64,000 bases of DNA from Escherichia coli (GTDB taxonomy: Bacteria > Pseudomonadota > Gammaproteobacteria > Enterobacterales > Enterobacteriaceae), in assembly GCF_045037415.1 (NCBI RefSeq), contig NZ_CP173438.1. One strand, written 5' to 3'. The translations under genes and the position numbers were made by a program. Under the pieces are notes generated by a model. It was not told the origin of the DNA. It saw only the letters and a program-made list of their open reading frames with translations, and searched no databases. Shown here piece after piece: positions 2,538 to 47,949 of the stretch (its first letter is position 1; every line of letters begins with the position of its first letter).

Positions 2538-3197
2538 ATGCTGACAATAAAACGTAGCGTGGCGATCATCGCGATACTCTTCAGTCCGTTAAGTACGGCG
2601 AGCAATCTCACATCGCAATTGCACAACTTTTTTAGCGCCCAACTCGCGGGGGTAAGTGATGAGGTTCGTGTTTCTATTCGTACAGCGCCCAATCTGCTAC
2701 CGCCGTGCGAGCAGCCATTGCTTTCGATGAGCAATAATTCCCGCCTGTGGGGCAATGTGAATGTGTTGGCACGCTGCGGTAACGACAAACGATATTTACA
2801 GGTTAATGTACAGGCCACAGGAAATTATGTGGTTGCCGCGATGCCCATTGTGCGTGGAGGAAAGCTGGAAGCTGGCAATGTCAAACTGAAACGCGGACGG
2901 CTGGATACCTTGCCACCGCGTACGGTGCTGGATATCAATCAACTTGTTGATGCCGTTAGCCTGCGCGATCTATCACCCGATCAACCTATCCAGTTAACCC
3001 ACTTTCGCCAGGCATGGCGGGTAAAAGCGGGACAACGCGTCAACGTTATCGCCAGCGGTGATGGGTTTAGCGCCAACGCAGAAGGTCAGGCGCTGAACAA
3101 TGCAGCCGTCGCACAGAATGCGCGGGTGCGCATGATATCGGGACAAGTGGTCAGCGGCGTTGTTGATGCAGATGGGAATATTCTTATAAACCTGTAA
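2538..3197 (+). CDS. flgA: Flagellar P-ring assembly chaperone FlgA (219 aa)
   Basis: Protein MLTIKRSVAIIAILFSPLSTASNLTSQLHNFFSAQL... is FlgA; ATG at 2538. Confidence 0.95.
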   Translation: MLTIKRSVAIIAILFSPLSTASNLTSQLHNFFSAQLAGVSDEVRVSIRTAPNLLPPCEQPLLSMSNNSRLWGNVNVLARCGNDKRYLQVNVQATGNYVVAAMPIVRGGKLEAGNVKLKRGRLDTLPPRTVLDINQLVDAVSLRDLSPDQPIQLTHFRQAWRVKAGQRVNVIASGDGFSANAEGQALNNAAVAQNARVRMISGQVVSGVVDADGNILINL

Positions 3198-4026: not shown

Positions 4027-5649
<1,623 letters not shown>

Positions 5650-28079: not shown

Positions 28080-28440
<361 letters not shown>

Positions 28441-28451
28441 ATTCTTCTCCC

Positions 28452-28480
28452 GAAAAAAAAACAGGGCTTACGCCCTGTTT
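28452..28480 (-). terminator. Rho-independent terminator after csgA (csgBA transcript end)
   Basis: On the minus strand: hairpin aaacagggcg-taag-ccctgttt followed by a run of about 9 T, between the csgA stop and csgC start. Confidence 0.8.
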
Positions 28481-28499
28481 CTTTCATACAGATGATGTA

Positions 28500-28958
28500 T
28501 TAGTACTGATGAGCGGTCGCGTTGTTACCAAAGCCAACCTGAGTGACGTTAACGCTGGAGTTAGATGCAGTCTGGTCAACAGCAGCACCGTTACCGCCAC
28601 CGAACTGTTTAACAGTCATAGTAGAATCTTTACCATTCCACTGATCAAGAGTAGCGCTGTTGCCGAAACCACGCTGAGTCAGATCGATTGAGCTGTCATC
28701 AGAACCTTGGCCAACATCTGCACCATTACCGCCGCCGTGCTGGGTAATGGTCAGATCAGAGTTGCGGGCGTCAGCTTGCAGAGCAAGAGCAGAGTTACCG
28801 CCACCGTACTGGTAAATATTCAGCTCTGAATTCGGGCCGCTGTTATTACCGCCACCACCGTGGTTGCCGCCACCGCCGCCGTACTGAGGAACAACACCTG
28901 CCAGAGCGCTACCGGAGAATACGATTGCTGCAATTGCTGCTACTTTTAAAAGTTTCAT
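28500..28958 (-). CDS. csgA: Major curlin subunit CsgA (152 aa here)
   Basis: Protein MKLLKVAAIAAIVFSGSALAGVVPQYGGGGGNHGGGGNNSGPNSELNIYQYGGGNSALALQ... with five imperfect amyloid repeats; ATG at 28958. Confidence 0.95.
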   Translation of the reverse strand: MKLLKVAAIAAIVFSGSALAGVVPQYGGGGGNHGGGGNNSGPNSELNIYQYGGGNSALALQADARNSDLTITQHGGGNGADVGQGSDDSSIDLTQRGFGNSATLDQWNGKDSTMTVKQFGGGNGAAVDQTASNSSVNVTQVGFGNNATAHQY

Positions 28959-28998
28959 GTAAAACCCCCATCGGATTGATTTAAAAGTCGAATGGAAA

Positions 28999-29454
28999 TT
29001 AACGTTGTGTCACGCGAATAGCCATTTGCGACTGTCTCTGCACTACAATTGCCGTTTTTTGAGTACCATACTGTGTAATATTTGCTTTATTACCAGAACC
29101 TTTCTGGATAATCATCGCAGTATTACCATAAGCACCTTGCGAAATACTGGCATCGTTGGCACTGCCCGCCTGATCAATATATGCAAGGTTATAATCTCCT
29201 GTCTGGTCAATCTTTGCCCGGTTGCTACTACCTTCTTGCGCAACAACCGCCAAAAGTTTTGAGCCTCCCTGCCGTAACTGAGCACTATTATTAGTCCCAG
29301 CTTGACCAATTATGGCTGCCTGATTAAATGAAGACTTACTCAATTCATTTACCGCAAAGTTATATTCTGAATTAGCTAAATCATAACCTGCTGCGGCTGC
29401 AATCCCAGGCGCACCCAGTATTGTTAACATCATAAATAACAATTTGTTTTTCAT
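28999..29454 (-). CDS. csgB: Minor curlin / nucleator CsgB (151 aa)
   Basis: Protein MKNKLLFMMLTILGAPGIAAAAGYDLANSEYNFAVNELSKSS... is CsgB; ATG at 29454. Confidence 0.93.
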   Translation of the reverse strand: MKNKLLFMMLTILGAPGIAAAAGYDLANSEYNFAVNELSKSSFNQAAIIGQAGTNNSAQLRQGGSKLLAVVAQEGSSNRAKIDQTGDYNLAYIDQAGSANDASISQGAYGNTAMIIQKGSGNKANITQYGTQKTAIVVQRQSQMAIRVTQR

Positions 29455-30206
29455 GTTGTCACCCTGGACCTGGTCGTACATTTAAGAAATTAAATCATTT
29501 CAACTTGGTTGTTAACGCAACCCGTATTTTGTTAACGCTGCGTTACGATGGAAAGTATGTCTGCGGAAATATTTTTAATAACTCACCCGCGCGTTGTATT
29601 TTTCTTTTTTTGTTCATACCAAAGTATTAAAACCCACGTAAATACGCTGTTATCTACGCAAAAAATATTTTGTTTTCTTTTAAATCTCCGTTTTCCGCTA
29701 TCAAAAATCACCAGACAGTCATTCTTCTTGCCCGTCGCTGATTGCTGCGATATGTCTTGCGCACAAGCCGTGACAAACCTCGTCTTTTTGCAGTAAAAAA
29801 TTGTCCACGGTGGTATGGAGAAAAAACAAGAACGTTTTACATGACGAAAGGACTACAGCGAAATATTTTTTATATGCATTATTAGTAAGTTAGCACCATT
29901 TGTATGATTTTTTAAAATTGTGCAATAAAAACCAAATGTACAACTTTTCTATCATTTCTAAACTTAATAAAACCTTAAGATTAACATTTTAATATAACGA
30001 GTTACATTTAGTTACATGTTTAACACTTGATTTAAGATTTGTAATGGCTAGATTGAAATCAGATGTAATCCATTAGTTTTATATTTTACCCATTTAGGGC
30101 TGATTTATTACTACACACAGCAGTGCAACATCTGTCAGTACTTCTGGTGCTTCTATTTTAGAGGCAGCTGTCAGGTGTGCGAACAATAAAAAAGCGGGGT
30201 TTCATC
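29455..30206. promoter_or_regulatory. csgBAC / csgDEFG divergent intergenic control region, including the csgD promoter and long 5' UTR
   Basis: 752-bp, visibly AT-rich non-coding block between divergent csgB and csgD. Known to integrate many regulators and small RNAs; individual sites were not mapped here. Confidence 0.8.
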
Positions 30207-30857
<651 letters not shown>

Positions 30858-30861
30858 AGCC

Positions 30862-31251
30862 ATGAAACGTTATTTACGCTGGATTGTGGCGGCAGAATTT
30901 CTGTTCGCCGCAGGGAATCTTCATGCCGTTGAGGTAGAAGTCCCGGGATTGTTAACTGACCATACTGTTTCATCTATTGGCCATGATTTTTACCGAGCCT
31001 TTAGTGATAAATGGGAAAGTGACTATACGGGTAACTTAACGATTAATGAAAGGCCCAGTGCACGATGGGGAAGTTGGATCACTATAACGGTCAATCAGGA
31101 CGTTATTTTCCAGACTTTTTTATTTCCGTTGAAAAGAGACTTCGAGAAAACTGTCGTCTTTGCACTGATTCAAACTGAAGAAGCACTAAATCGTCGCCAG
31201 ATAAACCAGGCGTTATTAAGTACGGGCGATTTGGCGCATGATGAATTTTAA
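30862..31251 (+). CDS. csgE: Curli secretion specificity factor CsgE (129 aa)
   Basis: Protein [47 protein letters not shown]... is CsgE; ATG at 30862. Confidence 0.95.
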
Positions 31252-31275
31252 ATAATAAATTGTTCGGAGGCTGCA

Positions 31276-31692
31276 ATGCGTGTCAAACATGCAGTAGTTC
31301 TACTCATGCTTATTTCGCCATTAAGTTGGGCTGGATCCATGACTTTCCAGTTCCGTAATCCAAACTTTGGTGGTAACCCAAATAATGGCGCTTTTTTGTT
31401 AAATAGCGCTCAGGCACAAAACTCTTATAAAGATCCGAGCTATAACGATGACTTTGGTATTGAAACGCCATCAGCGTTAGATAACTTTACTCAGGCCATC
31501 CAGTCACAAATTTTGGGTGGGCTACTGTCGAATATTAATACCGGTAAACCGGGCCGCATGGTGACCAACGATTATATTGTTGATATTGCTAACCGCGATG
31601 GTCAATTGCAGTTGAACGTGACAGATCGTAAAACCGGACAAACCTCGACCATCCAGGTTTCGGGTTTACAAAATAACTCAACCGATTTTTAA
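31276..31692 (+). CDS. csgF: Curli assembly component CsgF (138 aa)
   Basis: Protein [48 protein letters not shown]... is CsgF; ATG at 31276. Confidence 0.95.
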
Positions 31693-34579: not shown

Positions 34580-35557
<978 letters not shown>

Positions 35558-35751
35558 TTATCGTTATGATCTACAAAGGCCACCAGCATAACAAATCCGT
35601 GGTCGGTGACAAAAAAAGCAAATTTCGCTTATTAAAACTACATATTGATTGAAGTTTGAATAATCGAGCGATTTTTTAAAAAAGTTTGTTGACCTCAGGT
35701 CATGATTTCCCTAAATTAGCGCCCGTTCCAGCAAGACAGGAACGACAATTT

Positions 35752-35839
35752 GGTGAGGTGTCCGAGTGGCTGAAGGAGCACGCCTGGAAAGTGTGTATAC
35801 GGCAACGTATCGGGGGTTCGAATCCCCCCCTCACCGCCA
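35752..35839 (+). tRNA. serX: tRNA-Ser (anticodon GGA)
   Basis: GGTGAGGTGTCCGAGTGGCTGAAGGAGCACGCCTGGAAAGTGTGTATACGGCAACGTATCGGGGGTTCGAATCCCCCCCTCACCGCCA: acceptor stem pairs with the 3' end, long variable arm typical of class II Ser tRNA, GGA anticodon, encoded CCA. Confidence 0.93.
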
Positions 35840-35848
35840 TATTTAAAG

Positions 35849-35880
35849 AAGAGCTCGTACGAAAGTACGAGCTTTTTTTT
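35849..35880 (+). terminator. Rho-independent terminator of serX
   Basis: Hairpin gagctcgtac-gaaa-gtacgagc followed by 8 T. Confidence 0.85.
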
Positions 35881-35943
35881 CGTATATTGCATACACCGGG
35901 GGGATGAGAAGCCCCAGGCGGAGGTTGACAACTAGCGACAGAC

Positions 35944-37311
35944 TCATTCATCATCCTTGCGGTTGATAAGAATTTCTGCCTCTTTTACTACCACCTTATT
36001 ACGCCCGGTCTCTTTCGCCTCGTAAAGTGCGTTATCAGCCAGTTGATAGATCTCCTTAGGGTTTAACTCATTTTTCTGCGTTACAACAGCGCCAATACTA
36101 ATCGTCACTTTTTGTGGTATGGCGTATTCAGGATTATCGCCAGTTAAACGTTCAACATTTTCCCGAATCCTTTCCGCTAAAGCTTTCGCACATTCAGTAT
36201 CGATCTCCGTCAGCAAGACGCCAAACTCTTCGCCGCCAACGCGCGCTAAAAGGTCATCTGGTCGTATGCTTTTCCCAATGATATTCACCACTGTCTTTAT
36301 CACTTGATCGCCAACCGGATGTCCCCAGGTGTCGTTGACTTTTTTGAAGTGGTCAATATCCATAATCATGACGCAATAAGGTGTTTTTTTGGCCGATGCT
36401 GATTGAACCGTCAGTTCATTAAAAAAATAATTTCTGTTGAATATATTGGTTAAGGGATCGCGATGTGCAATGTCCTTTGTTACTCGTAGCGCACTGAATA
36501 TATGGCACATAAAAATTACCAAAACGGTTAACTTACTGACTACTTCAATAGTGCGACTAATATACCAAATGGACACGCTATACCTGCTCATAAATAACAG
36601 AGAGATATTGTACAGCACGGCACAAAAAGCAATCACCGACACCCCGTTCCAGATATCACAGCGTAAACCATTAAAGTATAGATTAACCGAAAGCAAGGTT
36701 AACCACATGAAAATCATTATGGTAACATATGAGGCTTTCCAAACCACCTGACCATTTTCATTGGTTAACTCGGCAATGTGTAAATCGTAGCTCTCATAAT
36801 GGCTAGAAAATATGTGAGCAACTATCGGCCCCCCAAGAACAAAAAACAAACTTATGCACAAAGTCACTTTTTTGGAAAATAAATTGCGCTGTTTTGTGTT
36901 TTCACTAACTTTATTTATCAATGCCAGAAATATTAACATGCACAAACTCATCTGACGAAACAAATAATAAATTGCAATGTCATTTTGAACAACACTGCTT
37001 GTCAAACGCCCCTCAATAATTTGCTGAATGATAATGACGGTTTTAACAAAGTAAATCAAACAACTTAGAAAAGCCAAACTAAGTATACAGTTTGAAAATT
37101 GCCTACGGTCATAAATGAAATACAACTGCATAAAAATAAATGCAACAGTATCGATAAAAAATAAAGCAATCATAACCATCAGATAGGTTGATCGTGGAAC
37201 AACTTCCTCAACGGTTGGCTGATTGAACCAACTATTAACCAAAACCAATGCAAGCCCAAACAATAAGCTCACTAATACAGTACTACTAATTCCCAAATAG
37301 TCTTTTTCCAT
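35944..37311 (-). CDS. dgcT: Membrane-anchored diguanylate cyclase DgcT (YcdT); about 455 aa from this ATG
   Basis: Protein from MEKDYLGISSTVLVSLLFGLALV... has multiple N-terminal TM helices and a C-terminal GGDEF domain (RVGGEEFGVLL); ATG at 37311. The track extension to 37434 starts on TTG right after a stop and was trimmed. Confidence 0.88.
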   Translation of the reverse strand: MEKDYLGISSTVLVSLLFGLALVLVNSWFNQPTVEEVVPRSTYLMVMIALFFIDTVAFIFMQLYFIYDRRQFSNCILSLAFLSCLIYFVKTVIIIQQIIEGRLTSSVVQNDIAIYYLFRQMSLCMLIFLALINKVSENTKQRNLFSKKVTLCISLFFVLGGPIVAHIFSSHYESYDLHIAELTNENGQVVWKASYVTIMIFMWLTLLSVNLYFNGLRCDIWNGVSVIAFCAVLYNISLLFMSRYSVSIWYISRTIEVVSKLTVLVIFMCHIFSALRVTKDIAHRDPLTNIFNRNYFFNELTVQSASAKKTPYCVMIMDIDHFKKVNDTWGHPVGDQVIKTVVNIIGKSIRPDDLLARVGGEEFGVLLTEIDTECAKALAERIRENVERLTGDNPEYAIPQKVTISIGAVVTQKNELNPKEIYQLADNALYEAKETGRNKVVVKEAEILINRKDDE

Positions 37312-37434
37312 AAAGCTACACCAACCTGTAGGTTGTAGATCCCTTTTTATTATTAATAGATATAAGAACTGTACTGTTGTCAATATGAAAATCCACCCAC
37401 AAACAATACCGATGATGATAGTTGCAGAATGCAA

Positions 37435-37896
37435 TTATTATCACTTTAATGCTTTATACATTTTTTGCTGCAAGGCAGGCGCAAATACTTATAAAAGATT
37501 ATAATAAAATCCTTATAAAGCATTAATTAATAGATACATTAGGAATAACAATTAAATCCGTGAGTGCAGTAGCGCTGCCTTTCATCAGGACTTTCGAAAA
37601 ATCCGAAATCATGCATCGGAATTTACTGATTTAATTATTTTAATCCTAATTTATTTTGAAAAAGGTATTGGGATTTATGCCGTATTCCTGAAGATCCTCA
37701 TCATTGGAATGGATTTTCGGGCGAGAAAAGGATTTTATATGGACACTCTGCTCATCATTTCTTCTTCTCATCATCAACAATTCACGTCTCTCTTCCGCGT
37801 TTAATAACGGATTATGAGATGCAAAAATATCTTTCTTTTCAGTTACCTGTAATTAGATACAGAGAGAGATTTTGGCAATACATGGAGTAATACAGG
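37435..37896 (+). promoter_or_regulatory. ycdT / pgaA divergent intergenic region with the long pgaA leader (CsrA-regulated)
   Basis: 462-bp AT-rich non-coding block with several GGA motifs, including caggatg overlapping the pgaA Shine-Dalgarno and ATG. CsrA repression of pgaA via leader GGA sites is established; exact sites were not mapped. Confidence 0.7.
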
Positions 37897-40320
37897 ATGT
37901 ATTCAAGTAGCAGAAAAAGGTGCCCGAAAACCAAATGGGCTTTGAAAATTCTTACTGCTGCATTTTTAGCAGCGAGTCCCGCGGCGAAGAGTGCTGTTAA
38001 TAACGCCTATGATGCATTGATTATTGAAGCTCGCAAAGGAAATACTCAGCCAGCTTTGTCATGGTTTGCACAAAAATCAACACTCAGTAATAACCAAATT
38101 GCTGACTGGTTACAGATTGCCTTATGGGCCGGGCAAGATAAACAGGTTATTACCGTTTACAACCGCTATCGTCATCAGCAATTACCAGCGCGTGGTTATG
38201 CAGCTGTCGCCGTCGCTTATCGTAACCTGCAACAATGGCAAAACTCGCTTACACTGTGGCAAAAGGCGCTCTCTCTGGAGCCGCAAAATAAGGATTATCA
38301 ACGGGGACAAATTTTAACCCTGGCAGATGCGGGTCACTATGATACTGCGCTGTTTAAACTTAAGCAGCTTAAATCTGGAGCACCGGACAAAGCCAATTTA
38401 CTCGCAGAAGCCTATATCTATAAACTGACGGGGCGTTATCAGGATGAATTACGGGCGATGACAGAGTCATTACCTGAAAATGCATCTAAGCAACAATATC
38501 CCACAGAATACGTGCTGGCATTACGTAATAATCAACTAGCTGCCGCGATTGACGATGCCAATTTAACGCCAGATATTCGCGCTGATATTCATGCCGAACT
38601 GGTCAGACTGTCGTTTATGCCTACGCGCAGTGAAAATGAACGTTATGCCATTGCCGATCGCGCCCTCGCCCAATACGCTGCATTAGAAATTCTGTGGCAC
38701 GATAACCCAGACCGCACTGCCCAGTACCAGCGTATTCAGGTTGATCATCTTGGCGCGTTATTAACTCGCGATCGTTATAGAGACGTTATTTCTCACTATC
38801 AGCGTTTAAAAAAGACGGGGCAAATTATTCCGCCCTGGGCGCTATATTGGGTTGCGTCGGCTTATCTCAAAGATCAGCAGCCGAAAAAAGCACAGTCAAT
38901 AATGACCGAGCTCTTTTATAACAAGGAAACCATTGCCACGGATTTATCCGATGAAGAACTTGCGGATCTCTTTTACAGCCACCTGGAGAGTGAAAATTAT
39001 CCCGGCGCGCTAACTGTCACCAAACATACCATTAATACTTCGCCGCCTTTCCTTCGGCTAATGGGCACGCCTACGAGCATCCCGAATGATACCTGGTTAC
39101 AGGGGCATTCGTTTCTCTCAACCGTAGCAAAATATAGTAATGATCTTCCTCAAGCTGAAATAACAACCAGAGAACTTGCTTATAACGCACCAGGAAATCA
39201 GGGACTGCGCATCGATTACGCGAGTGTGTTACAAGCCCGCGGTTGGCCTCGTGCGGCAGAAAATGAATTAAAAAAAGCAGAAGTGATCGAGCCACGTAAT
39301 ATTAATCTGGAGGTTGAACAAGCCTGGACAGCATTAACGTTACAAGAATGGCAGCAGGCAGCTGTCTTAACCCACGATGTTGTCGAACGTGAACCGCAAG
39401 ATCCCGGCGTTGTACGATTAAAACGTGCGGTTGATGTACATAATCTTGCAGAGCTTCGTATCGCTGGCTCAACAGGAATTGATGCCGAAGGTCCAGATAG
39501 TGGCAAACATGATGTCGACTTAACCACCATCGTTTATTCACCACCGCTGAATGATAACTGGCGCGGTTTTGCTGGATTCGGTTATGCCGATGGACAATTT
39601 AGCGAAGGAAAAGGGATTGTTCGCGACTGGCTGGCAGGTGTTGAGTGGCGGTCACGTAATATCTGGCTCGAGGCGGAGTACGCTGAACGCTTTTTCAATC
39701 ATGAGCATAAACCCGGCGCGCGCCTGTCTGGCTGGTATGATTTTAATGATAACTGGCGTATTGGTTCGCAACTGGAACGCCTCTCTCACCGCGTTCCATT
39801 ACGGGCAATGAAAAATGGTGTTACAGGCAACAGCGCACAGGCTTATGTTCGCTGGTATCAAAATGAGCGGCGTAAGTACGGTGTCTCCTGGGCTTTCACT
39901 GATTTTTCCGACAGTAACCAGCGTCATGAAGTCTCAATTGAGGGTCAAGAACGCATCTGGTCTTCACCATATTTGATTGTCGATTTCCTACCCAATCTGT
40001 ATTACGAACAAAATACAGAACACGACACCCCATACTACAACCCTATAAAAATGTTCGATATTGTTCCGGCATTTGAGGCAAGTCATTTGTTATGGCGAAG
40101 CTATGAAAATAGCTGGGAGCAAATATTCAGCGCAGGTGTTGGTGCCTCCTGGCAAAAACATTATGGCACGGATGTCGTCACCCAACTCGGCTACGGGCAA
40201 CGTATTAGCTGGAATGACGTGATTGATGCTGGCGCAACGCTACGCTGGGAAAAACGACCTTATGACGGTGACAGAGAACACAACTTATACGTTGAATTCG
40301 ATATGACATTCAGATTTTAA
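37897..40320 (+). CDS. pgaA: Poly-beta-1,6-N-acetylglucosamine (PGA) outer membrane export porin PgaA (807 aa)
   Basis: Protein MYSSSRKRCPKTKWALKILTAAFLAASPAAKSAVNNAYDALIIEARKGN..., TPR-like N-terminus and beta-barrel C-terminus; ATG at 37897. Confidence 0.95.
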   Translation: MYSSSRKRCPKTKWALKILTAAFLAASPAAKSAVNNAYDALIIEARKGNTQPALSWFAQKSTLSNNQIADWLQIALWAGQDKQVITVYNRYRHQQLPARGYAAVAVAYRNLQQWQNSLTLWQKALSLEPQNKDYQRGQILTLADAGHYDTALFKLKQLKSGAPDKANLLAEAYIYKLTGRYQDELRAMTESLPENASKQQYPTEYVLALRNNQLAAAIDDANLTPDIRADIHAELVRLSFMPTRSENERYAIADRALAQYAALEILWHDNPDRTAQYQRIQVDHLGALLTRDRYRDVISHYQRLKKTGQIIPPWALYWVASAYLKDQQPKKAQSIMTELFYNKETIATDLSDEELADLFYSHLESENYPGALTVTKHTINTSPPFLRLMGTPTSIPNDTWLQGHSFLSTVAKYSNDLPQAEITTRELAYNAPGNQGLRIDYASVLQARGWPRAAENELKKAEVIEPRNINLEVEQAWTALTLQEWQQAAVLTHDVVEREPQDPGVVRLKRAVDVHNLAELRIAGSTGIDAEGPDSGKHDVDLTTIVYSPPLNDNWRGFAGFGYADGQFSEGKGIVRDWLAGVEWRSRNIWLEAEYAERFFNHEHKPGARLSGWYDFNDNWRIGSQLERLSHRVPLRAMKNGVTGNSAQAYVRWYQNERRKYGVSWAFTDFSDSNQRHEVSIEGQERIWSSPYLIVDFLPNLYYEQNTEHDTPYYNPIKMFDIVPAFEASHLLWRSYENSWEQIFSAGVGASWQKHYGTDVVTQLGYGQRISWNDVIDAGATLRWEKRPYDGDREHNLYVEFDMTFRF

Positions 40321-40328
40321 GGATAAAT

Positions 40329-42347
40329 ATGTTACGTAATGGAAATAAATATCTCCTGATGCTGGTGAGTATAATTATGCTCACCGCGTGCATTAGCCAG
40401 TCAAGAACATCATTTATACCGCCACAGGATCGCGAATCTTTACTCGCCGAGCAACCGTGGCCACATAATGGTTTTGTGGTGATTTCATGGCATAACGTTG
40501 AAGACGAAGCTGCCGACCAGCGTTTTATGTCAGTGCGAACATCAGCACTGCGTGAACAATTTGCCTGGCTGCGCGAGAACGGTTATCAACCGGTCAGTAT
40601 TGCTCAAATTCGTGAAGCACATCGAGGAGGAAAACCGCTACCGGAAAAAGCAGTAGTGCTGACTTTTGATGACGGCTACCAGAGTTTTTATACCCGTGTC
40701 TTCCCAATTCTTCAGGCCTTCCAGTGGCCGGCTGTATGGGCTCCCGTCGGCAGTTGGGTCGATACTCCAGCGGATAAACAAGTGAAATTTGGCGATGAGA
40801 TGGTCAGTCGAGAATATTTTGCCACGTGGCAACAAGTGCGAGAAGTTGCGCGTTCCCGGCTCGTTGAGGTCGCTTCTCATACATGGGATTCTCACTACGG
40901 TATTCAGGCTAATGCCACCGGCAGCTTATTGCCTGCATATGTAAATCGTGCATATTTTACTGACCACGCACGGTATGAAACCGCAGCAGAATACCGGGAA
41001 AGAATTCGCCTGGATGCTGTAAAAATGACGGAATACCTGCGTACAAAGGCTGAGGTAAATCCACACGTTTTTGTTTGGCCTTATGGCGAAGCGAATGGCA
41101 TAGCAATAGCGGAATTAAAAAAACTCGGTTATGACATGTTCTTCACCCTTGAATCAGGTTTGGCAAATGCGTCGCAATTAGATTCCATTCCGCGAGTATT
41201 AATCGCCAATAATCCCTCATTAAAAGAGTTTGCCCAGCAAATTATTACCGTACAGGAAAAACCACTACAACGGGTAATGCATATCGATCTTGATTACGTT
41301 TATGACGAAAACCGCCAGCAAATGGATCGCAATATTGATGTGCTAATTCAGCGGGTAAAAGATATGCAAATATCTACCGTGTATTTGCAAGCATTTGCTG
41401 ATCCCGATGGTGATGGGCTGGTTAAAGAGGTCTGGTTTCCAAATCGTTTGCTACCAATGAAAGCAGATATTTTTAGTCGGGTTGCCTGGCAATTGCGTAC
41501 CCGCTCAGGTGTAAACATCTATGCGTGGATGCCGGTATTAAGCTGGGATTTAGATCCCACATTAACGCGAGTAAAATACTTACCAACTGGGGAGAAAAAA
41601 GCACAAATTCATCCTGAACAATACCGCCGTCTCTCTCCTTTCGATGACAGGGTCAGAGCACAAGTTGGTATGTTATATGATGATCTTGCCGGACATGCTG
41701 CTTTTGATGGCATATTGTTCCACGATGATGCTTTGCTTTCAGATTATGAAGATGCCAGTGCAGCGGCTATCGCGGCTTATCAGCAAGCTGGCTTTAGCGG
41801 GAGTCTGAGCGAAATTCGACAAAACCCGGAGCAATTTAAACAGTGGACCCGCTTTAAAAGTCGTGCGTTAGCTGACTTCACTTTAGAACTTAGTGCGCGC
41901 GTAAAAGCCATTCGTGGTCCACATGTTAAAACTGCACGAAATATTTTTGCACTTCCGGTAATACAACCTGAAAGTGAAGCCTGGTTTGCACAGAATTATG
42001 CTGATTTCCTAAAAAGCTATGACTGGACCGCTATTATGGCTATGCCTTATATGGAAGGCGTCACAGAAAAATCGGCTGATCAATGGTTAATACAATTGAC
42101 CAATCAGATGAAAAGCATCCCGCAGGCTAAAGACAAATCAATTTTAGAATTACAGGCACAAAACTGGCAGAAAAATGGTCAGCATCAGGCTATTTCTTCA
42201 CAACAACTCGCTCACTGGATGAGCCTATTACAACTGAATGGAGTGAAAAATTATGGTTATTATCCCGACAATTTTCTGCATAACCAACCTGAAATAGACG
42301 TTATTCGTCCTGAGTTTTCAACAGCCTGGTATCCGAAAAATGATTAA
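40329..42347 (+). CDS. pgaB: PGA N-deacetylase lipoprotein PgaB (672 aa)
   Basis: Protein [44 protein letters not shown]... has a lipobox and polysaccharide deacetylase domain; ATG at 40329. Confidence 0.95.
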
Positions 42348-43665
42348 TCGCATCGTATCGTTTTTTATATTATGTCTGGTGTTATGCATACCCCTATGCG
42401 TAGCGTACTTTCACTCTGGTGAACTGATGATGAGGTTCGTTTTCTTCTGGCCGTTTTTTATGTCCATTATGTGGATTATTGGCGGCGTCTATTTCTGGGT
42501 CTATCGTGAACGCCACTGGCCGTGGGGAGAAAACGCACCAGCCCCCCAGTTGAAAGATAATCCATCTATCTCCATTATCATTCCCTGTTTTAATGAGGAG
42601 AAAAACGTTGAAGAAACCATACATGCCGCTTTAGCACAGCGTTATGAGAACATTGAAGTTATTGCCGTAAATGATGGTTCAACAGACAAAACCCGTGCCA
42701 TCCTGGATCGCATGGCTGCACAAATTCCCCGTCTGCGGGTCATTCATCTGGCGCAAAACCAGGGGAAAGCCATTGCGCTTAAAACCGGAGCTGCCGCGGC
42801 GAAAAGTGAATATCTGGTGTGCATTGATGGCGACGCGTTATTAGACCGCGATGCAGCGGCATATATTGTGGAACCGATGTTGTACAACCCGCGTGTGGGT
42901 GCCGTAACCGGTAATCCTCGTATTCGCACACGTTCTACCCTGGTGGGTAAAATTCAGGTTGGCGAGTATTCCTCAATTATTGGTTTGATCAAGCGGACCC
43001 AGCGTATCTATGGAAACGTATTTACCGTTTCCGGTGTTATTGCCGCATTTCGTCGCAGCGCCCTGGCAGAAGTGGGTTACTGGAGTGACGATATGATCAC
43101 CGAAGATATTGATATTAGCTGGAAGCTGCAGTTGAATCAGTGGACGATTTTTTACGAGCCACGGGCGCTGTGCTGGATATTAATGCCTGAAACGTTAAAA
43201 GGGCTGTGGAATCAGCGCCTGCGCTGGGCTCAGGGCGGTGCAGAAGTATTCCTCAAAAATATGACAAGGTTGTGGCGCAAAGAAAACTTTCGAATGTGGC
43301 CACTGTTTTTTGAATACTGTCTGACGACAATATGGGCCTTTACCTGCCTGGTCGGTTTCATTATTTACGCAGCCCAACTTGCAGGTGTACCGTTAAATAT
43401 TGAATTGACACATATCGCAGCGACACATACTGCCGGAATATTATTGTGTACGTTATGTTTACTGCAATTTATTGTCAGTCTGGTGATTGAGAATCGCTAT
43501 GAGCACAATCTGGCTTCATCGCTTTTCTGGATTATTTGGTTCCCGGTTATTTTCTGGATGCTAAGCCTGGCAACGACGTTGGTATCATTTACACGAGTCA
43601 TGTTGATGCCTAAAAAACAACGCGCTCGTTGGGTAAGTCCCGATCGTGGGATTCTGAGAGGTTAA
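42340..43665 (+). CDS. pgaC: PGA synthase glycosyltransferase PgaC (GT2), 441 aa
   Basis: Protein [41 protein letters not shown]... with GT2 D,D,D and QRLRW motifs; ATG at 42340 overlaps the pgaB stop by 8 nt. Confidence 0.95.
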
Positions 43666-43666
43666 T

Positions 43667-44080
43667 ATGAACAATCTAATTATTACGACCCGACAATCGC
43701 CAGTACGTTTACTGGTTGATTATGTTGCCACAACTATCTTGTGGACATTATTTGCTTTATTCATATTCTTATTCGCCATTGATCTGCTGACGGGTTATTT
43801 CTGGCAAAGCGAGGCCAGAAGCCGACTTCAGTTCTATTTTTTGCTGGCAGTGGTGAATGCCGTCGTGTTAATCGTCTGGGCGTTGTACAATAAGCTGCGT
43901 TTTCAAAAACAGCAGCATCATGCAGCATACCAATATACGCCGCAAGAATATGCAGAGAGCTTAGCAATACCTGATGAGCTTTATCAGCAACTACAAAAAA
44001 GCCACAGGATGAGCGTACATTTCACCAGCCAGGGACAAATAAAAATGGTGGTTTCAGAAAAAACGCTAGTCCGGGTATAA
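43667..44080 (+). CDS. pgaD: PGA synthase accessory subunit PgaD (137 aa)
   Basis: Protein [47 protein letters not shown]... is PgaD; ATG at 43667, 1 nt after the pgaC stop. Confidence 0.93.
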
Positions 44081-44093
44081 ACACCCAAAACAA

Positions 44094-44112
44094 AGCCCGG
44101 TTCGCCCGGGCT
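44094..44112. terminator. Hairpin between convergent pgaD and phoH (candidate terminator)
   Basis: agcccgg-ttcg-cccgggct inverted repeat between the pgaD stop (44080) and phoH stop (44130). Confidence 0.5.
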
Positions 44113-44129
44113 CTGCACCGATAATACAC

Positions 44130-45194
44130 TTAACTGTATGCATGTAGCGTACGTTGGCAAAGTGCCGAACGTACGCAATCCTCTTTACCGAATCGGACGA
44201 TCCCGACCATTTCATCCTCTTCGAAACGTTCCAGCGCGTCACTTAATCCGGAGCGCACGCCGCGAGGCAAATCGCATTGCGTGATATCACCGTTGACGAT
44301 AACCGTCACGTTCTCCCCGAGGCGGGTTAAAAACATTTTCATTTGCGCGGCAGTCACATTCTGCGCCTCGTCAAGAATGACGACTGCATTTTCAAAGGTA
44401 CGTCCACGCATATAGGCGAACGGCGCAATTTCCACCTTCCCTATTTCCGGTCGCAGGCAGTACTGCATAAAGGAAGCCCCTAAGCGACGGACCAGCACGT
44501 CGTAGACCGGGCGAAAATAGGGAGCAAACTTTTCTGCGATATCACCAGGTAAGAAACCAAGATCTTCATCGGCTTGCAGAACTGGACGGGTGACGATAAT
44601 CCTGTCAACATCCTTATGTATCAGGGCCTCTGCCGCTTTTGCTGCGCTGATCCAGGTTTTTCCGCACCCGGCTTCACCCGTGGCAAATATCAGCTGCTTA
44701 CTCTCAATAGCCTTCAGATAGTGCAATTGCGCTTCATTTCGCGCGAGGATGGGCGAGGTATCGCGACTGTCGCGGGCCATACCAATGGCTTCTACGCCGC
44801 TCATTTGCACAAGCGAGGTGACCGATTCTTCTTCACGCTGCTTATGGCTGCGCGAATCCCGTCTCAGCACACGTTTTGCCTCGCGACGAGCTTTGATCAC
44901 TGCTTTTTGTCTTCCCATGGAGAGCACCTTGAGTTGTTTGTATTCATCACACGCGCCGTTGGCAGCGCGATTATGCGCACGAACATCAGAGGGTTGGCTT
45001 CCTTGTAAGCCATAGTTTGCTTTTGGATAAAATGCCGAAAAACGGCTACGCGCACCGTTTACGGCGTCGGTAACACATGAAAAGAAAGGATGAGGTTGAA
45101 AATACAAAGTGACGAGATGACTACCGGAGGAGAAATCTCCGCGAGTGGTGGCGCGCTGATTCTCTAAAACATGTCCAGTACAGGACGTTACCAT
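44130..45194 (-). CDS. phoH: PhoH, phosphate starvation-inducible ATPase (354 aa)
   Basis: Protein MVTSCTGHVLENQRATTRGDFSSGSHLVTLYF... with Walker A GEAGCGKT; ATG at 45194. Confidence 0.93.
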   Translation of the reverse strand: MVTSCTGHVLENQRATTRGDFSSGSHLVTLYFQPHPFFSCVTDAVNGARSRFSAFYPKANYGLQGSQPSDVRAHNRAANGACDEYKQLKVLSMGRQKAVIKARREAKRVLRRDSRSHKQREEESVTSLVQMSGVEAIGMARDSRDTSPILARNEAQLHYLKAIESKQLIFATGEAGCGKTWISAAKAAEALIHKDVDRIIVTRPVLQADEDLGFLPGDIAEKFAPYFRPVYDVLVRRLGASFMQYCLRPEIGKVEIAPFAYMRGRTFENAVVILDEAQNVTAAQMKMFLTRLGENVTVIVNGDITQCDLPRGVRSGLSDALERFEEDEMVGIVRFGKEDCVRSALCQRTLHAYS

Positions 45195-45343
45195 CCGCGA
45201 TCTCCATAGTGACTGACTATCACTGCCGGGAACTTCCGCTGCTACTTAATAAGTACAACAGATTTCGCATTCATTGCAACAATATATTCACTTATATTTA
45301 ACCATAAAACACCATTTCAGTGACATTAGTTTCTACTGGAAAG

Positions 45344-45362
45344 ATGACAGAGTGATGACAGT
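45344..45362 (-). promoter_or_regulatory. Pho box (PhoB binding site) upstream of phoH
   Basis: Minus strand reads CTGTCATCACTCTGTCATC: two CTGTCAT direct repeats 11 bp apart, matching the Pho box consensus, about 150 bp upstream of the phoH ATG. Confidence 0.7.
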
Positions 45363-45410
45363 GATGAAAAAAGCTGTGTGCTTTCAGCAGGATTCGCGGT
45401 ACTGGTAAAA

Positions 45411-45540
45411 GCTTGCCGGATGCGGCGTGAACGCCTTATCCGGCCTACCGACCCGCACCGATTGTAGGCATGATAAGACGCGCAAGCGTCGCATCAGCGC
45501 ACGAACGCCTGGTGCGGCGTAAACGCCTTATACGCCTAAA
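45411..45540. repeat. Cluster of REP (repetitive extragenic palindromic) units
   Basis: gcttgccggatgcggcgtgaacgccttatccggcctac, gtaggcatgataagacgcgcaagcgtcgcatcagcgc and cgcctggtgcggcgtaaacgccttatacgcc between phoH and efeB. Confidence 0.8.
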
Positions 45541-45544
45541 AACA

Positions 45545-46816
45545 TTAAACCCGCAATAATGCGCTTCCGAGATAATCGTTCGCGTCCTTCACACCCGGCA
45601 GCGCAAAGAAATAGCCGCCACCGATAGGTTTGACATATTCCTCCAGCGCCTCGCCATTCAACCTTTTTTGTACTGTCAGGAAGCCCTTTTCCAGATCGTG
45701 TTGGTAGCAGACAAACAGTAGCCCCATATCGAGTTGCCCGGAATTGGTGACGCCCAACGAATAACTGTAGCCACGACGCAGCATCAGGCTGGACTCGCTC
45801 TCCGCCGTGCGGGGATTCGCCAGCCGGATATGGCTGTCCAGCGCAATCACCTTCCCTTCCGGATCGCTAGCGTAATCGGGAACATCATGCTCATGCTGCA
45901 TGCCCAGCGGCGCACCGGTTTGCTTATCACGACCAAATATCGTCTGCTGCTCTTTCAGCGGCGTTCTGTCCCAAAATTCCACTCGAAACTGAATCAAGCG
46001 TACTGCCTGATAGCTGCCACCGATTGTCCACGCAGGCTCCTGCTGATCTGCCGTCACCCACACCACTTTTTGCATCAACTTCGCATTCTGGCTATCGGGA
46101 TTGGCGGTGCCGTCTTTAAAGCCCAGCAAATTTATCGGCGTCTCTTTGCCTTTACTACGCGCTGCGTGGTCGGAAATAAACCCTTCCCGCTTCCAGCGCA
46201 CGCTGAGCAAATCCGGCGTGTGTTTGATGATATCGCGCAGCGCATGGATCACCGTGTCCTGGGTGTTGGCGCAAATTTGTAGCAACACATCACCATGACA
46301 TAACGCCGCATCCAGCGAGTCGTTGGGGAAACGCGTCATCTTCTGCAACTTTTTTGGCATCTGTGGCGCAAGGCCAAAGCGCTCATCAAACAATGAGTGA
46401 CCCACCGATAACGTGATGGTGAGATTATCGGGCGCAATGTAGCCGCCAAGAATGCCGGAATCGAGTGGTGGCAGGCGCGGATTTGGCGTTTCTGGTGCCG
46501 CTCCGCCCTGAGTCAGAAAAGCAAAACGCTGAGTCAACAAGCGAAACAACCGTTCAAGATCGGCTTTATCGCTGGCAAGCACATCAAACGCCACCAGCAT
46601 CATTGCAGCCTGTTGTGGTGTCAGGATCCCTGCCTGATGCTCACCATAAAACGGCTGTTTCTCATTGCGTGCATCCGGTGAAAGCGTACCCGGCGCACTT
46701 TGCGTTTTTTGTGCATGAGCAACCGGACAACTTCCCGCCAGCGCCAGCGCACCAATCCCTTTCAGTAAACGTCGGCGTGACGGTTCATTCACGCCGTTTT
46801 CATCTTCATACTGCAT
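45545..46816 (-). CDS. efeB: Tat-exported Dyp-type haem peroxidase EfeB (YcdB), 423 aa
   Basis: Protein [36 protein letters not shown]... has a twin-arginine signal (SRRRLLKG); ATG at 46816. Confidence 0.95.
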
Positions 46817-46821
46817 AACGC

Positions 46822-47949
46822 TTAGTCCAGCCCCAGCACACCACGAAGTTGCGCCAGATCTTCCGCCAGCGCAGTAATCGGTCCTTTCAGTGCGTTCCGG
46901 TCGGCATCGGTCAGTTTGTCGTAATTTTCAAAACCCTCTTTAGTGCGGTATTTCGCCAGAATGGTATCGACCTTTTTGAAGTTGGCATCGACTTTTGCCA
47001 ACAGTTCCGGATTCGCTTTTTGTAGTTGTGGACGCAGCAGATCGACAATTTTCTGCGAGCCTTCAACGTTAGCCTGGAAATCCCACAGATCGGTGTGGCT
47101 GTAGCGATCTTCTTCACCGCTGATTTTGCTGGCCGCCACTTCCTCAATCAGTCCGGCTGCACCGCCGACCACTTTTGAAGGAGGGAAAGCCAGTTCACTG
47201 ATGCGTTTTTGCAAATCGACCACATCGGTATAAAGCTGGTCAGCATACTTATCCATCCCTTTGGTGGTGTTATCGCCAAACAATGCTTTTTCCAGACGGT
47301 GGAAACCGGTGAATTTTGGATCGGCGGCTTTTTGCTCGTAATCATCTTCACGGGCGTCAATGCTGCCATCCAGATCGGAGAACAGTTCAGCAATCGGTTC
47401 GATGCGCTCATAGTGCTGCCGCGTCGGCGCATACAGTGCTTTCGCTTTTTCGATATCGCCTGCTTTAATAGCGTCGGTAAAGGCTTTGGTGTCGGTCACC
47501 AGTTGCGTGGTTTCCGCCATGACATACGCTTTATATGCAGTAATTGCACCACCAAGACTTAACAGCGCATCACTTTGCGCCGCATCCGCCGTTGCTTCAC
47601 CTTTGACGATCAACTTCCCTTTCGGGTTAGTCAGCAGACCGCAGGTCATATCGTATTCGCCAGGCTGTAAATTCGCCGTCATTTTCTGGCTAAAACCAGG
47701 GGCGATATTTTCCCGCTCTTCCACCACCATCACGCCTTTGAGGATCTCCCACTCCAGCGCCTTCTGGCTGTGGTTCTGAATAATGAACTGTGTTTTCCCG
47801 GCGTTAACCGTAATGGTCATCGGCTCGCACTGCTTATCTGTCACAGTGACTTTGACTTGCGGAATATCGGCGGCGTTAGCCATAAAAGCAGAAGAGAACA
47901 GCGCAGCCACGCTCAACTGCAATGCGTTACGACGGAAGTTAATGGTCAT
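46822..47949 (-). CDS. efeO: Periplasmic iron-uptake component EfeO (YcdO), 375 aa
   Basis: Protein [44 protein letters not shown]... is EfeO; ATG at 47949. Confidence 0.95.

Follow-up and report, generated by a model that had tools for sequence, protein, structure and literature searches.

The dgcT-pgaABCD biofilm module of Escherichia coli as an AT-rich, replaceable segment between serX and phoH

Positions 35944-44080 of the 64-kb stretch of DNA analysed here (the window) carry dgcT (ycdT) and pgaABCD, which together form the known Escherichia coli biofilm module for poly-β-1,6-N-acetylglucosamine (PGA), the main arrangement of which is already known. The window is a piece of E. coli chromosome, 99.8% identical to the annotated strain A42 over the 9 kb that were queried, and its gene order, reversed relative to K-12, is flg...mdoGH-csgBAC/csgDEFG-ycdZYX-ghrA-serX-dgcT-pgaABCD-phoH-efeBOU-putPA-rut. 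On the left, the block is preceded by ghrA (34580-35518, minus strand) and by serX, a tRNA-Ser(GGA) gene (35752-35839, plus strand) that was found by ARAGORN and by the Rfam tRNA model (53.8 bits) and is annotated in RefSeq; on the right, it is followed by phoH (44130-44918, minus strand).

The pga operon lies on the plus strand in the order pgaA-pgaB-pgaC-pgaD, with overlapping or adjacent open reading frames (ORFs). It encodes the outer-membrane PGA export porin PgaA, which combines TPR repeats with a β-barrel (37897-40320; NF007468, 1438 bits against a cut-off of 1043), the PGA N-deacetylase/hydrolase lipoprotein PgaB (40329-42347; NF011177, 1345 against 923 bits), the GT2 poly-β-1,6-GlcNAc synthase PgaC (42340-43665; TIGR03937, 645 against 422 bits) and the small inner-membrane PgaC partner PgaD (43667-44080; NF011180, 292 against 191 bits, and Pfam PgaD). 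All four proteins, as well as GhrA and PhoH, score above the curated cut-offs of NCBIfam equivalog models, by which the four-gene PGA system is complete; PgaC and PgaD are 98.6% and 97.1% identical to their K-12 counterparts. On the opposite strand, dgcT (35944-37311, minus strand) encodes a membrane protein of 455 aa with a MASE4 domain at residues 41-274 (1.2e-69) and a GGDEF domain at residues 282-439 (6.2e-51). The A-site GGEEF (residues 359-363) is intact, and an I-site RPDD (RxxD, residues 350-353) lies five residues upstream. This intact MASE4-GGDEF architecture predicts a diguanylate cyclase, and the cyclase activity of YcdT has been reported as verified (PMC3484386). Three other candidates were set aside: a 496-aa dgcT ORF with a TTG start, which is too long against the annotated 455 aa; an 84-aa ORF at 35700-35954, which overlaps serX, matches no family and is considered spurious; and pyrC, which is intact, one codon shorter and not a feature.

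An earlier note on this DNA had described a GGDEF cyclase gene transcribed divergently from pgaABCD in an established rather than a new arrangement. Pfam, the motifs, the RefSeq annotation and the gene order bear out the first statement, and the literature agrees with the second (PMC4287979, PMC3634460): the divergent ycdT/pgaABCD arrangement and a suggested link to PGA have been explicitly described (PMC4287979), and ycdT and ydeH are cyclase genes that promote PGA synthesis, both of which are repressed by CsrA together with pgaABCD (PMC3634460). The K-12 locus (b1021-b1025) has the same genes in the same order and divergent orientation, lies between the same neighbours (phoH and serX-ghrA), and has 96-98% nucleotide identity across the block and the same low GC content (dgcT 0.386, pgaA-D 0.460). 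It differs in that ymdE-ycdU and the insertion sequence (IS) IS3D lie between dgcT and serX, where the window has only 104 bp, and in that K-12 DgcT has 452 aa and a slightly different C-terminus.

The two transcription units are separated by a divergent intergenic region of 585 bp (37312-37896; GC 0.33), the pgaA-proximal part of which is the pgaA 5′ leader (37663-37896, plus strand). The leader length of 234 nt follows from the K-12 transcription start reported by Wang et al. in 2005. The leader contains eight GGA triplets, against 2.5 ± 1.4 in shuffled sequences (P about 0.001), and the last two lie on the Shine-Dalgarno sequence (GGAG) and across the start codon (CAGGATG); it is therefore a predicted CsrA/Rho control region. 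From 37533 onward it is 97-99% identical to K-12. A consensus promoter scan performed no better than on shuffled sequences (20 against 18.9 hits) and was not used.

According to published work, CsrA remodels the pgaA leader and exposes a Rho site (PMC12360218), NhaR activates the pgaA promoter and overcomes H-NS at nhaA (PMC6307784), and the Pga machinery is a direct target of cyclic di-GMP (c-di-GMP; PMC4287979); the c-di-GMP-dependent activation of PgaC-PgaD is known in K-12, as far as it is relayed by a citing paper (Steiner et al., 2013, via PMC4287979). In the window, by the same scheme, c-di-GMP would stabilise and activate the PgaC-PgaD complex, CsrA would repress both dgcT and the pgaA leader, the latter through GGA motifs over the Shine-Dalgarno sequence and the ATG and through Rho-dependent attenuation, and NhaR would switch on the pgaA promoter. 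PgaCD would then synthesise PGA, PgaB deacetylate it and the PgaA porin export it. DgcZ, rather than DgcT, is the main cyclase feeding PgaCD in K-12. For this reason, and because the expression of ycdT is very weak (PMC4287979), a role of DgcT as a built-in source of c-di-GMP for PgaCD is plausible rather than firm, and both points weigh against a tight functional reading of the module. The fact that dgcT travels with pga, as described below, lends indirect support to a functional coupling.

The block is compositionally atypical. Its GC content is 0.435, compared with 0.508 in the remainder of the window, and none of the 1118 sliding windows of 8137 bp that were tested is lower, the minimum starting at 35951. 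By gene, the GC content is 0.383 in dgcT, 0.466 in pgaA, 0.445 in pgaB, 0.465 in pgaC and 0.423 in pgaD, against 0.515 in ghrA, 0.526 in phoH and 0.540 in efeB. The GC content at third codon positions (GC3) of the five block genes is 0.429, compared with 0.536 in the 56 other genes of the window (Mann-Whitney p = 0.005), and the corresponding values at the first (GC1, 0.515 against 0.581) and second positions (GC2, 0.369 against 0.420) are lowered as well, so that all three codon positions deviate. Rare codons are more frequent in the block (6.4% against 3.7%, p = 0.002) and the frequency of optimal codons (Fop) is reduced (0.456 against 0.550, p = 0.003). When pooled, GC3 is 0.419 in the block, whereas the eight flanking genes closest to it have 0.543 (chi-square 72.6, p = 1.6e-17). 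The Karlin codon-bias distance did not set the block apart from the window genes (p = 0.87), but this measure is confounded by gene length; it was therefore set aside in favour of GC3, the rare-codon fraction and Fop.

Because GC, GC3, rare codons and Fop are all shifted, the block is clearly distinguishable from its flanks, and the claim of the earlier note that it is more AT-rich than they are stands for the block as a whole. It does not hold evenly, however. The signal is concentrated in dgcT (38% GC) and the intergenic region (33% GC), with a GC content of 0.33-0.36 at 36500-38000 in the composition profile, whereas pgaA-D are only moderately low (42-47%), and the curli genes of the same window, 6 kb away, are just as AT-rich. 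The strongest part is a core at 36741-37840, comprising the 5′ half of dgcT and the divergent promoter region, which is 66.6% AT over 1.1 kb. Of all the tracts that a 200-bp sliding scan of the window placed at 65% AT or more, it is the longest; the second-longest is the csgB-csgD intergenic region (29455-30206; 752 bp, GC 0.34).

The curli locus csgDEFG/csgBAC (28.1-32.6 kb) is, like dgcT-pgaABCD, a divergent locus for a biofilm matrix component; its genes and its intergenic region (GC 0.34) are AT-rich as well, and it is under c-di-GMP-dependent regulation (PMC4287979). Unlike the variable pga block, however, curli genes are present in every E. coli locus compared here that reaches them (A42, K-12, GPEC856 and cS33a).

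The AT-rich core, which spans the region for the DgcT sensor domain as well as the divergent promoter region, is plausibly a putative H-NS target and a conserved property of the module. A stronger version of this idea, in which silencing by H-NS is the dominant explanation, with filaments nucleating on the 1.1-kb core and holding both promoters off until counter-silenced by, for example, NhaR, is possible but doubtful. It accords with the longest AT tract of the window lying exactly over the divergent promoters, and with the comparable csgB-csgD tract covering the csgD promoter region, which is regulated by H-NS. Papers on Actinobacillus pleuropneumoniae, and the title of a paper on Acinetobacter, also name H-NS together with pgaABCD, and H-NS is reported to repress pga there. 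The ability of NhaR to overcome H-NS at nhaA while activating pgaA, together with the very weak expression of dgcT, would likewise fit. On the other hand, a literature search turned up no report of H-NS binding at E. coli pga or dgcT and no results on these genes from hns mutants, and the high-affinity H-NS motif is not clearly enriched (13 occurrences against 9.9 expected, all but one with two mismatches). An AT level of the kind associated with H-NS is reached within the block only in the core, pgaA-D being mildly AT-rich (53-58% AT), and such repression as is known acts at the post-transcriptional level, by way of CsrA and Rho (PMC3634460, PMC12360218).

The presence and absence of the block among E. 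coli strains define its limits closely. Of the 5426 complete E. coli genomes surveyed, 4408 contain pgaABCD, 4237 contain dgcT and 1051 (about 19%) contain an alternative segment encoding a DUF2726 protein. In the pga-less strains GPEC856 and cS33a, the serX-phoH interval consists of this DUF2726 gene and an AT-rich spacer (approximately 1.2 kb, GC 0.41). The alignment to these strains is conserved up to approximately 35941, which places the left breakpoint at approximately 35941-35943, just before the dgcT stop codon. On the other side, homology resumes at 44087, 6 bp past the pgaD stop codon; the right breakpoint thus lies at 44081-44086, between the convergent pgaD and phoH, and is followed, up to 44111, by a hairpin (GCCCGG-TTCG-CCCGGGC) that is common to the pga-less strains. 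The block is therefore a discrete accessory or replacement unit of approximately 8.15 kb (about 35942-44086) between the serX 3′ flank and phoH. The DUF2726 protein has 228 aa (4791-5477 of the GPEC856 locus and 4291-4977 of the cS33a locus, minus strand in both), and its segment is itself divergent, with 694 genomes just 90-95% identical to the query.

The 3′ end of serX (35839) points at the block, which starts approximately 100 bp beyond it. The serX 3′ flank is a hotspot, occupied by ymdE-ycdU and IS3D in K-12, as mentioned above, and by pdeT in EDL933 (PMC4287979), and serX is a known integration site for a genomic island, PAI-CFT073-serX (PMC3855560). Like tRNA-associated islands of this kind, the window block has an atypical composition, a position on the 3′ side of a tRNA gene, a sharp-edged presence and absence, and alternative cargo. 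Unlike them, it has no integrase, att-type repeats or mobility genes, is only 8 kb long, consists of a single functional module and is fixed at one site across Escherichia clades. Old islet, or replaceable accessory segment, is a more fitting description of it than active island.

The interval between serX and the block (35840-35941, plus strand) contains the serX terminator, with a terminator-like hairpin at 35852-35873, and a partial copy of a unit of approximately 181 bp that lies downstream of serX in block-less strains as well. This unit, composed of the last 19 nt of serX, the terminator and approximately 100 more bases, is repeated in tandem approximately 2.5 times in pga-less strains (4320-4785 of the GPEC856 locus), whereas the window holds only the truncated first unit. 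It resembles the tyrT/rtT repeats, and an RtT sRNA is annotated there by NCBI in some strains; Rfam gave no RtT match in the window, only weak matches below the threshold. With up to three mismatches allowed, the serX 3′ end has no further match in the window.

Within the block, sequence divergence is distributed very unequally. In a comparison with a divergent Escherichia genome (L007), identity is 89-94% (synonymous divergence, dS, about 0.34) in the flanks, in pgaC and pgaD and over the first third of pgaA, whereas it falls to 0.67-0.73 over the MASE4 region of dgcT and the intergenic region (36636-37830) and to about 0.75 over the last two-thirds of pgaA and pgaB (38880-42030; dS 0.85-1.3), with an overall range of 67-77% for these two stretches. 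The L007-type pgaA-3′/pgaB segment is not confined to that lineage: it occurs at an identity of at least 95% in 106 of the 5426 complete E. coli genomes, many of which are pig isolates, and a third type, about 82% identical to the L007 type, occurs in 14 complete E. coli genomes. The version of Citrobacter sp. is about equidistant from the window type and the L007 type. Even in comparison with K-12, the ratio of non-synonymous to synonymous divergence (dN/dS) is about 0.22 in dgcT, pgaA and pgaB, against 0-0.14 in the flanking genes. No description of divergent dgcT/pgaA/pgaB haplotypes was found in the literature searched, and these haplotypes are the only part of the present observations that might be new.

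The block also occurs outside its native site. In the pig isolate NT1N31, the native site is occupied by a serX island, an integrase gene and the DUF2726 gene ahead of phoH, without pga, and a complete dgcT-pgaABCD unit lies inside a CP4-like ileX island of approximately 41 kb, between nfeF and tRNA-Ile/mug; this ectopic copy is bordered on one side by the same integrase allele and a fragment of the serX-downstream sequence, and on the other side by IS1 and a type I restriction system. In MLI023K1, a frameshifted dgcT, pgaABCD and a 150-nt phoH fragment lie between IS remnants adjoining fecDE, and in strain 210205630 an IS5-dgcT-pgaABCD-phoH-IS3 arrangement stands beside raf-like genes. Since the genomes with pgaABCD and those with the DUF2726 segment (4408 and 1051) sum to more than 5426, at least 33 genomes hold both states. 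Strain 2017.10.01CC provides a case of another kind: its left flank is identical to K-12 up to serX, and the following 11.5 kb or so (window 35804-47300), from the serX 3′ end to efeO, are 98-100% identical to L007, which indicates a recombinational import from a divergent Escherichia lineage. Plasmid carriage was not used as evidence; of the 11 PLSDB matches (160 kb to 4.8 Mb), 10 are non-mobilizable. Records such as NZ_OL790696.1 (4.8 Mb) and CP099174.1 (1.3 Mb) look like mislabelled pieces of chromosome.

Beyond Escherichia, pga loci were collected by a scan with PgaC that used exact peptide words; only approximately 15 of its matches are true pga loci, the others being unrelated GT2 genes. 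The scan returned few Enterobacteriaceae, so that the sampling of genera is thin and cannot settle the presence or absence of the block in E. albertii, E. fergusonii and Salmonella. A module with a cyclase gene lies on an enterobacterial metagenome contig (ENA ERZ27280404), the cad genes of which share 85% nucleotide identity with those of E. coli: a divergent dgcT-pgaAB stands beside cadC-cadB, its DgcT, PgaA and PgaB are 63%, 77% and 80% identical to the window proteins, and it has the same AT profile (intergenic region GC 0.31, dgcT 0.38). The 63%-identical DgcT homologue belongs to a cluster of 161 members; MASE4-GGDEF homologues at a greater distance (42-46% identity) do not adjoin pga. 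In Citrobacter sp. Awk4/NCU1, an E. coli-type pgaABCD (PgaA-C 73-89% and PgaD 53-56% identical) has a chemoreceptor gene on one side and a TRAP transporter on the other, and dgcT is missing.

Yersinia hmsHFRS and the pga operons of Klebsiella, Citrobacter and Cedecea have homologous PgaA/B/C machinery in the same operon order, and the Yersinia Hms system depends on c-di-GMP; its cyclase gene hmsT is presumably unlinked to hmsHFRS. The Klebsiella-type operons share only 42-67% protein identity with E. coli and differ from it in their flanks and in a GC content near the local level. PgaA/B/C of K. pneumoniae, K. indica, Cedecea davisae and C. youngae are about 42/53/66% identical to those of E. 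coli, and those of Cupriavidus and Comamonas (34-37/50-54/61%) are barely further away. The pga genes of Klebsiella, Cedecea and C. youngae all have a GC content of 0.51-0.64, against 0.42-0.47 in the window, and it equals or exceeds that of the respective locus, except for pgaB in Cedecea and K. indica (0.53-0.57). No GGDEF gene was found within about 5.5-10 kb of pga in the sampled Klebsiella, Cedecea, C. youngae and Citrobacter sp. loci. The neighbours of pga differ at each sampled locus of the other genera, and phoH, ghrA and serX are absent there; in K. pneumoniae ATCC 13883, the operon lies approximately 2.5 kb downstream of a tRNA-Phe gene (3069-3144 of the locus). As judged from these sequences, the lack of synteny and the compressed scale of identities speak against the E. 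coli block having simply been passed down from a locus common to the enterobacteria.

Taken together, these observations are probably explained by a known PGA module that is an old, horizontally exchanged accessory segment at the serX-phoH site. Horizontal exchange, in line with the horizontal acquisition suggested in the earlier note, is supported by the position at the 3′ end of serX, the replacement in about 19% of the genomes, the ectopic copies and the non-syntenic loci of other genera. We infer that an ancient horizontal transfer would have brought the block into the Escherichia lineage, and that strains may afterwards have exchanged, replaced, lost and regained it, through homologous recombination or because it was carried along by neighbouring islands and IS elements, dgcT moving with pga. 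Several points weigh against this explanation, or at least against a recent date. L007, too, has the block at the ghrA-serX...phoH site, with flanks of 90-94% nucleotide identity. Between its breakpoints the window copy contains only dgcT and pgaABCD, without integrase, transposase or IS, and a general repeat scan of the window found no meaningful direct repeats flanking it. Because mobility genes are missing and the same site is occupied in a divergent Escherichia clade, the arrival would be an old one, and the lack of integrase, IS and direct repeats in the window copy implies the same for any acquisition in this lineage. In addition, the low GC content could partly reflect the composition of membrane proteins (DgcT, PgaC and PgaD) and AT-rich regulatory DNA, the curli genes csgBAC/csgDEF (28108-31692) have a GC3 of 0.415 that does not differ from that of the pga block (p = 0.86), and some of the ectopic contexts could come from intragenomic rearrangement between homologous islands. 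Finally, Pga trees have been found to be broadly congruent with those of phoH and of the species, from which vertical descent with loss has been argued (Echeverz et al., 2017, PMC5464674).

The last point speaks for an alternative, namely that the block has been inherited vertically from the enterobacterial ancestor and lost differentially, in Salmonella and in about 19% of E. coli, its AT-richness being due to functional constraint and to weak translational selection on poorly expressed genes. The congruent trees, with patchiness attributed to losses (PMC5464674), are joined here by the occupation of the same site in the divergent clade, by the window copy devoid of mobility genes and repeats, and by the weak expression of dgcT (PMC4287979); moreover, the copy with a 63%-identical DgcT has kept the AT profile (GC about 0.38 in dgcT and about 0.31 between dgcT and pgaA), as expected of a constraint rather than of an un-ameliorated relic. 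However, a shared ancestral locus fits poorly with pga being found in a different context in each of the other sampled genera, or with E. coli Pga proteins being almost as far from those of Klebsiella as from betaproteobacterial ones. Nor is the pga-less state a clean deletion, since another AT-rich gene takes the place of the block, and the unit occurs as a whole in islands and between IS elements, in one case in a strain with a pga-less native site. GC3, which is free of amino-acid constraint, is depressed as much as GC1 and GC2. Vertical inheritance with loss is thus unlikely, and it is allowed a real share of the probability because the sampling of genera is thin. It is very improbable that the low GC content is a regional or chance fluctuation unrelated to the history or regulation of the genes. 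Other AT-rich patches do occur in the window, including the curli genes and several intergenic regions, and the Karlin distance fails to separate the block; yet the block is the extreme of all equal-length windows, its pooled GC3 differs sharply from that of the immediate flanks, and the same composition profile recurs in diverged copies elsewhere. This explanation is largely refuted because the compositional step matches the pan-genome breakpoints within a few bases at both ends.

If exchange at the serX-phoH site is combined with the haplotypes, a broader but tentative reading emerges, which we regard as possible and as somewhat short of an even bet: dgcT-pgaABCD may be a self-contained biofilm cassette that circulates horizontally among Escherichia and its close relatives. 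At least three to four deeply divergent haplotypes would exist, with differences of about 25-30% at the nucleotide level confined to the DgcT sensor and promoter region, the C-terminal two-thirds of pgaA, and pgaB. Persistence and reshuffling of these haplotypes among E. coli strains would point to the PGA exporter and the sensor as targets of diversifying or balancing selection. Pressure from phages or host immunity may be the selecting force, and pga-negative strains may regain the cassette by hitch-hiking on islands and IS elements.

For the most part, the present findings confirm known biology, that is, a cyclase gene divergent from pgaABCD and a c-di-GMP-activated PgaCD synthase under the control of CsrA and NhaR. 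The exact delimitation of the replaceable serX-phoH unit is a modest addition to this picture, and the observations on haplotypes and mobility provide a modest lead. PGA is a major biofilm adhesin and a vaccine target, and the presence of pga, its haplotype and the movement of the module bear on biofilm and colonisation phenotypes. Should the deep divergence of PgaA, PgaB and DgcT stem from selection on an exporter that is exposed at the surface, it would be relevant to interventions directed at poly-N-acetylglucosamine (PNAG) and to studies of phage-host interactions.

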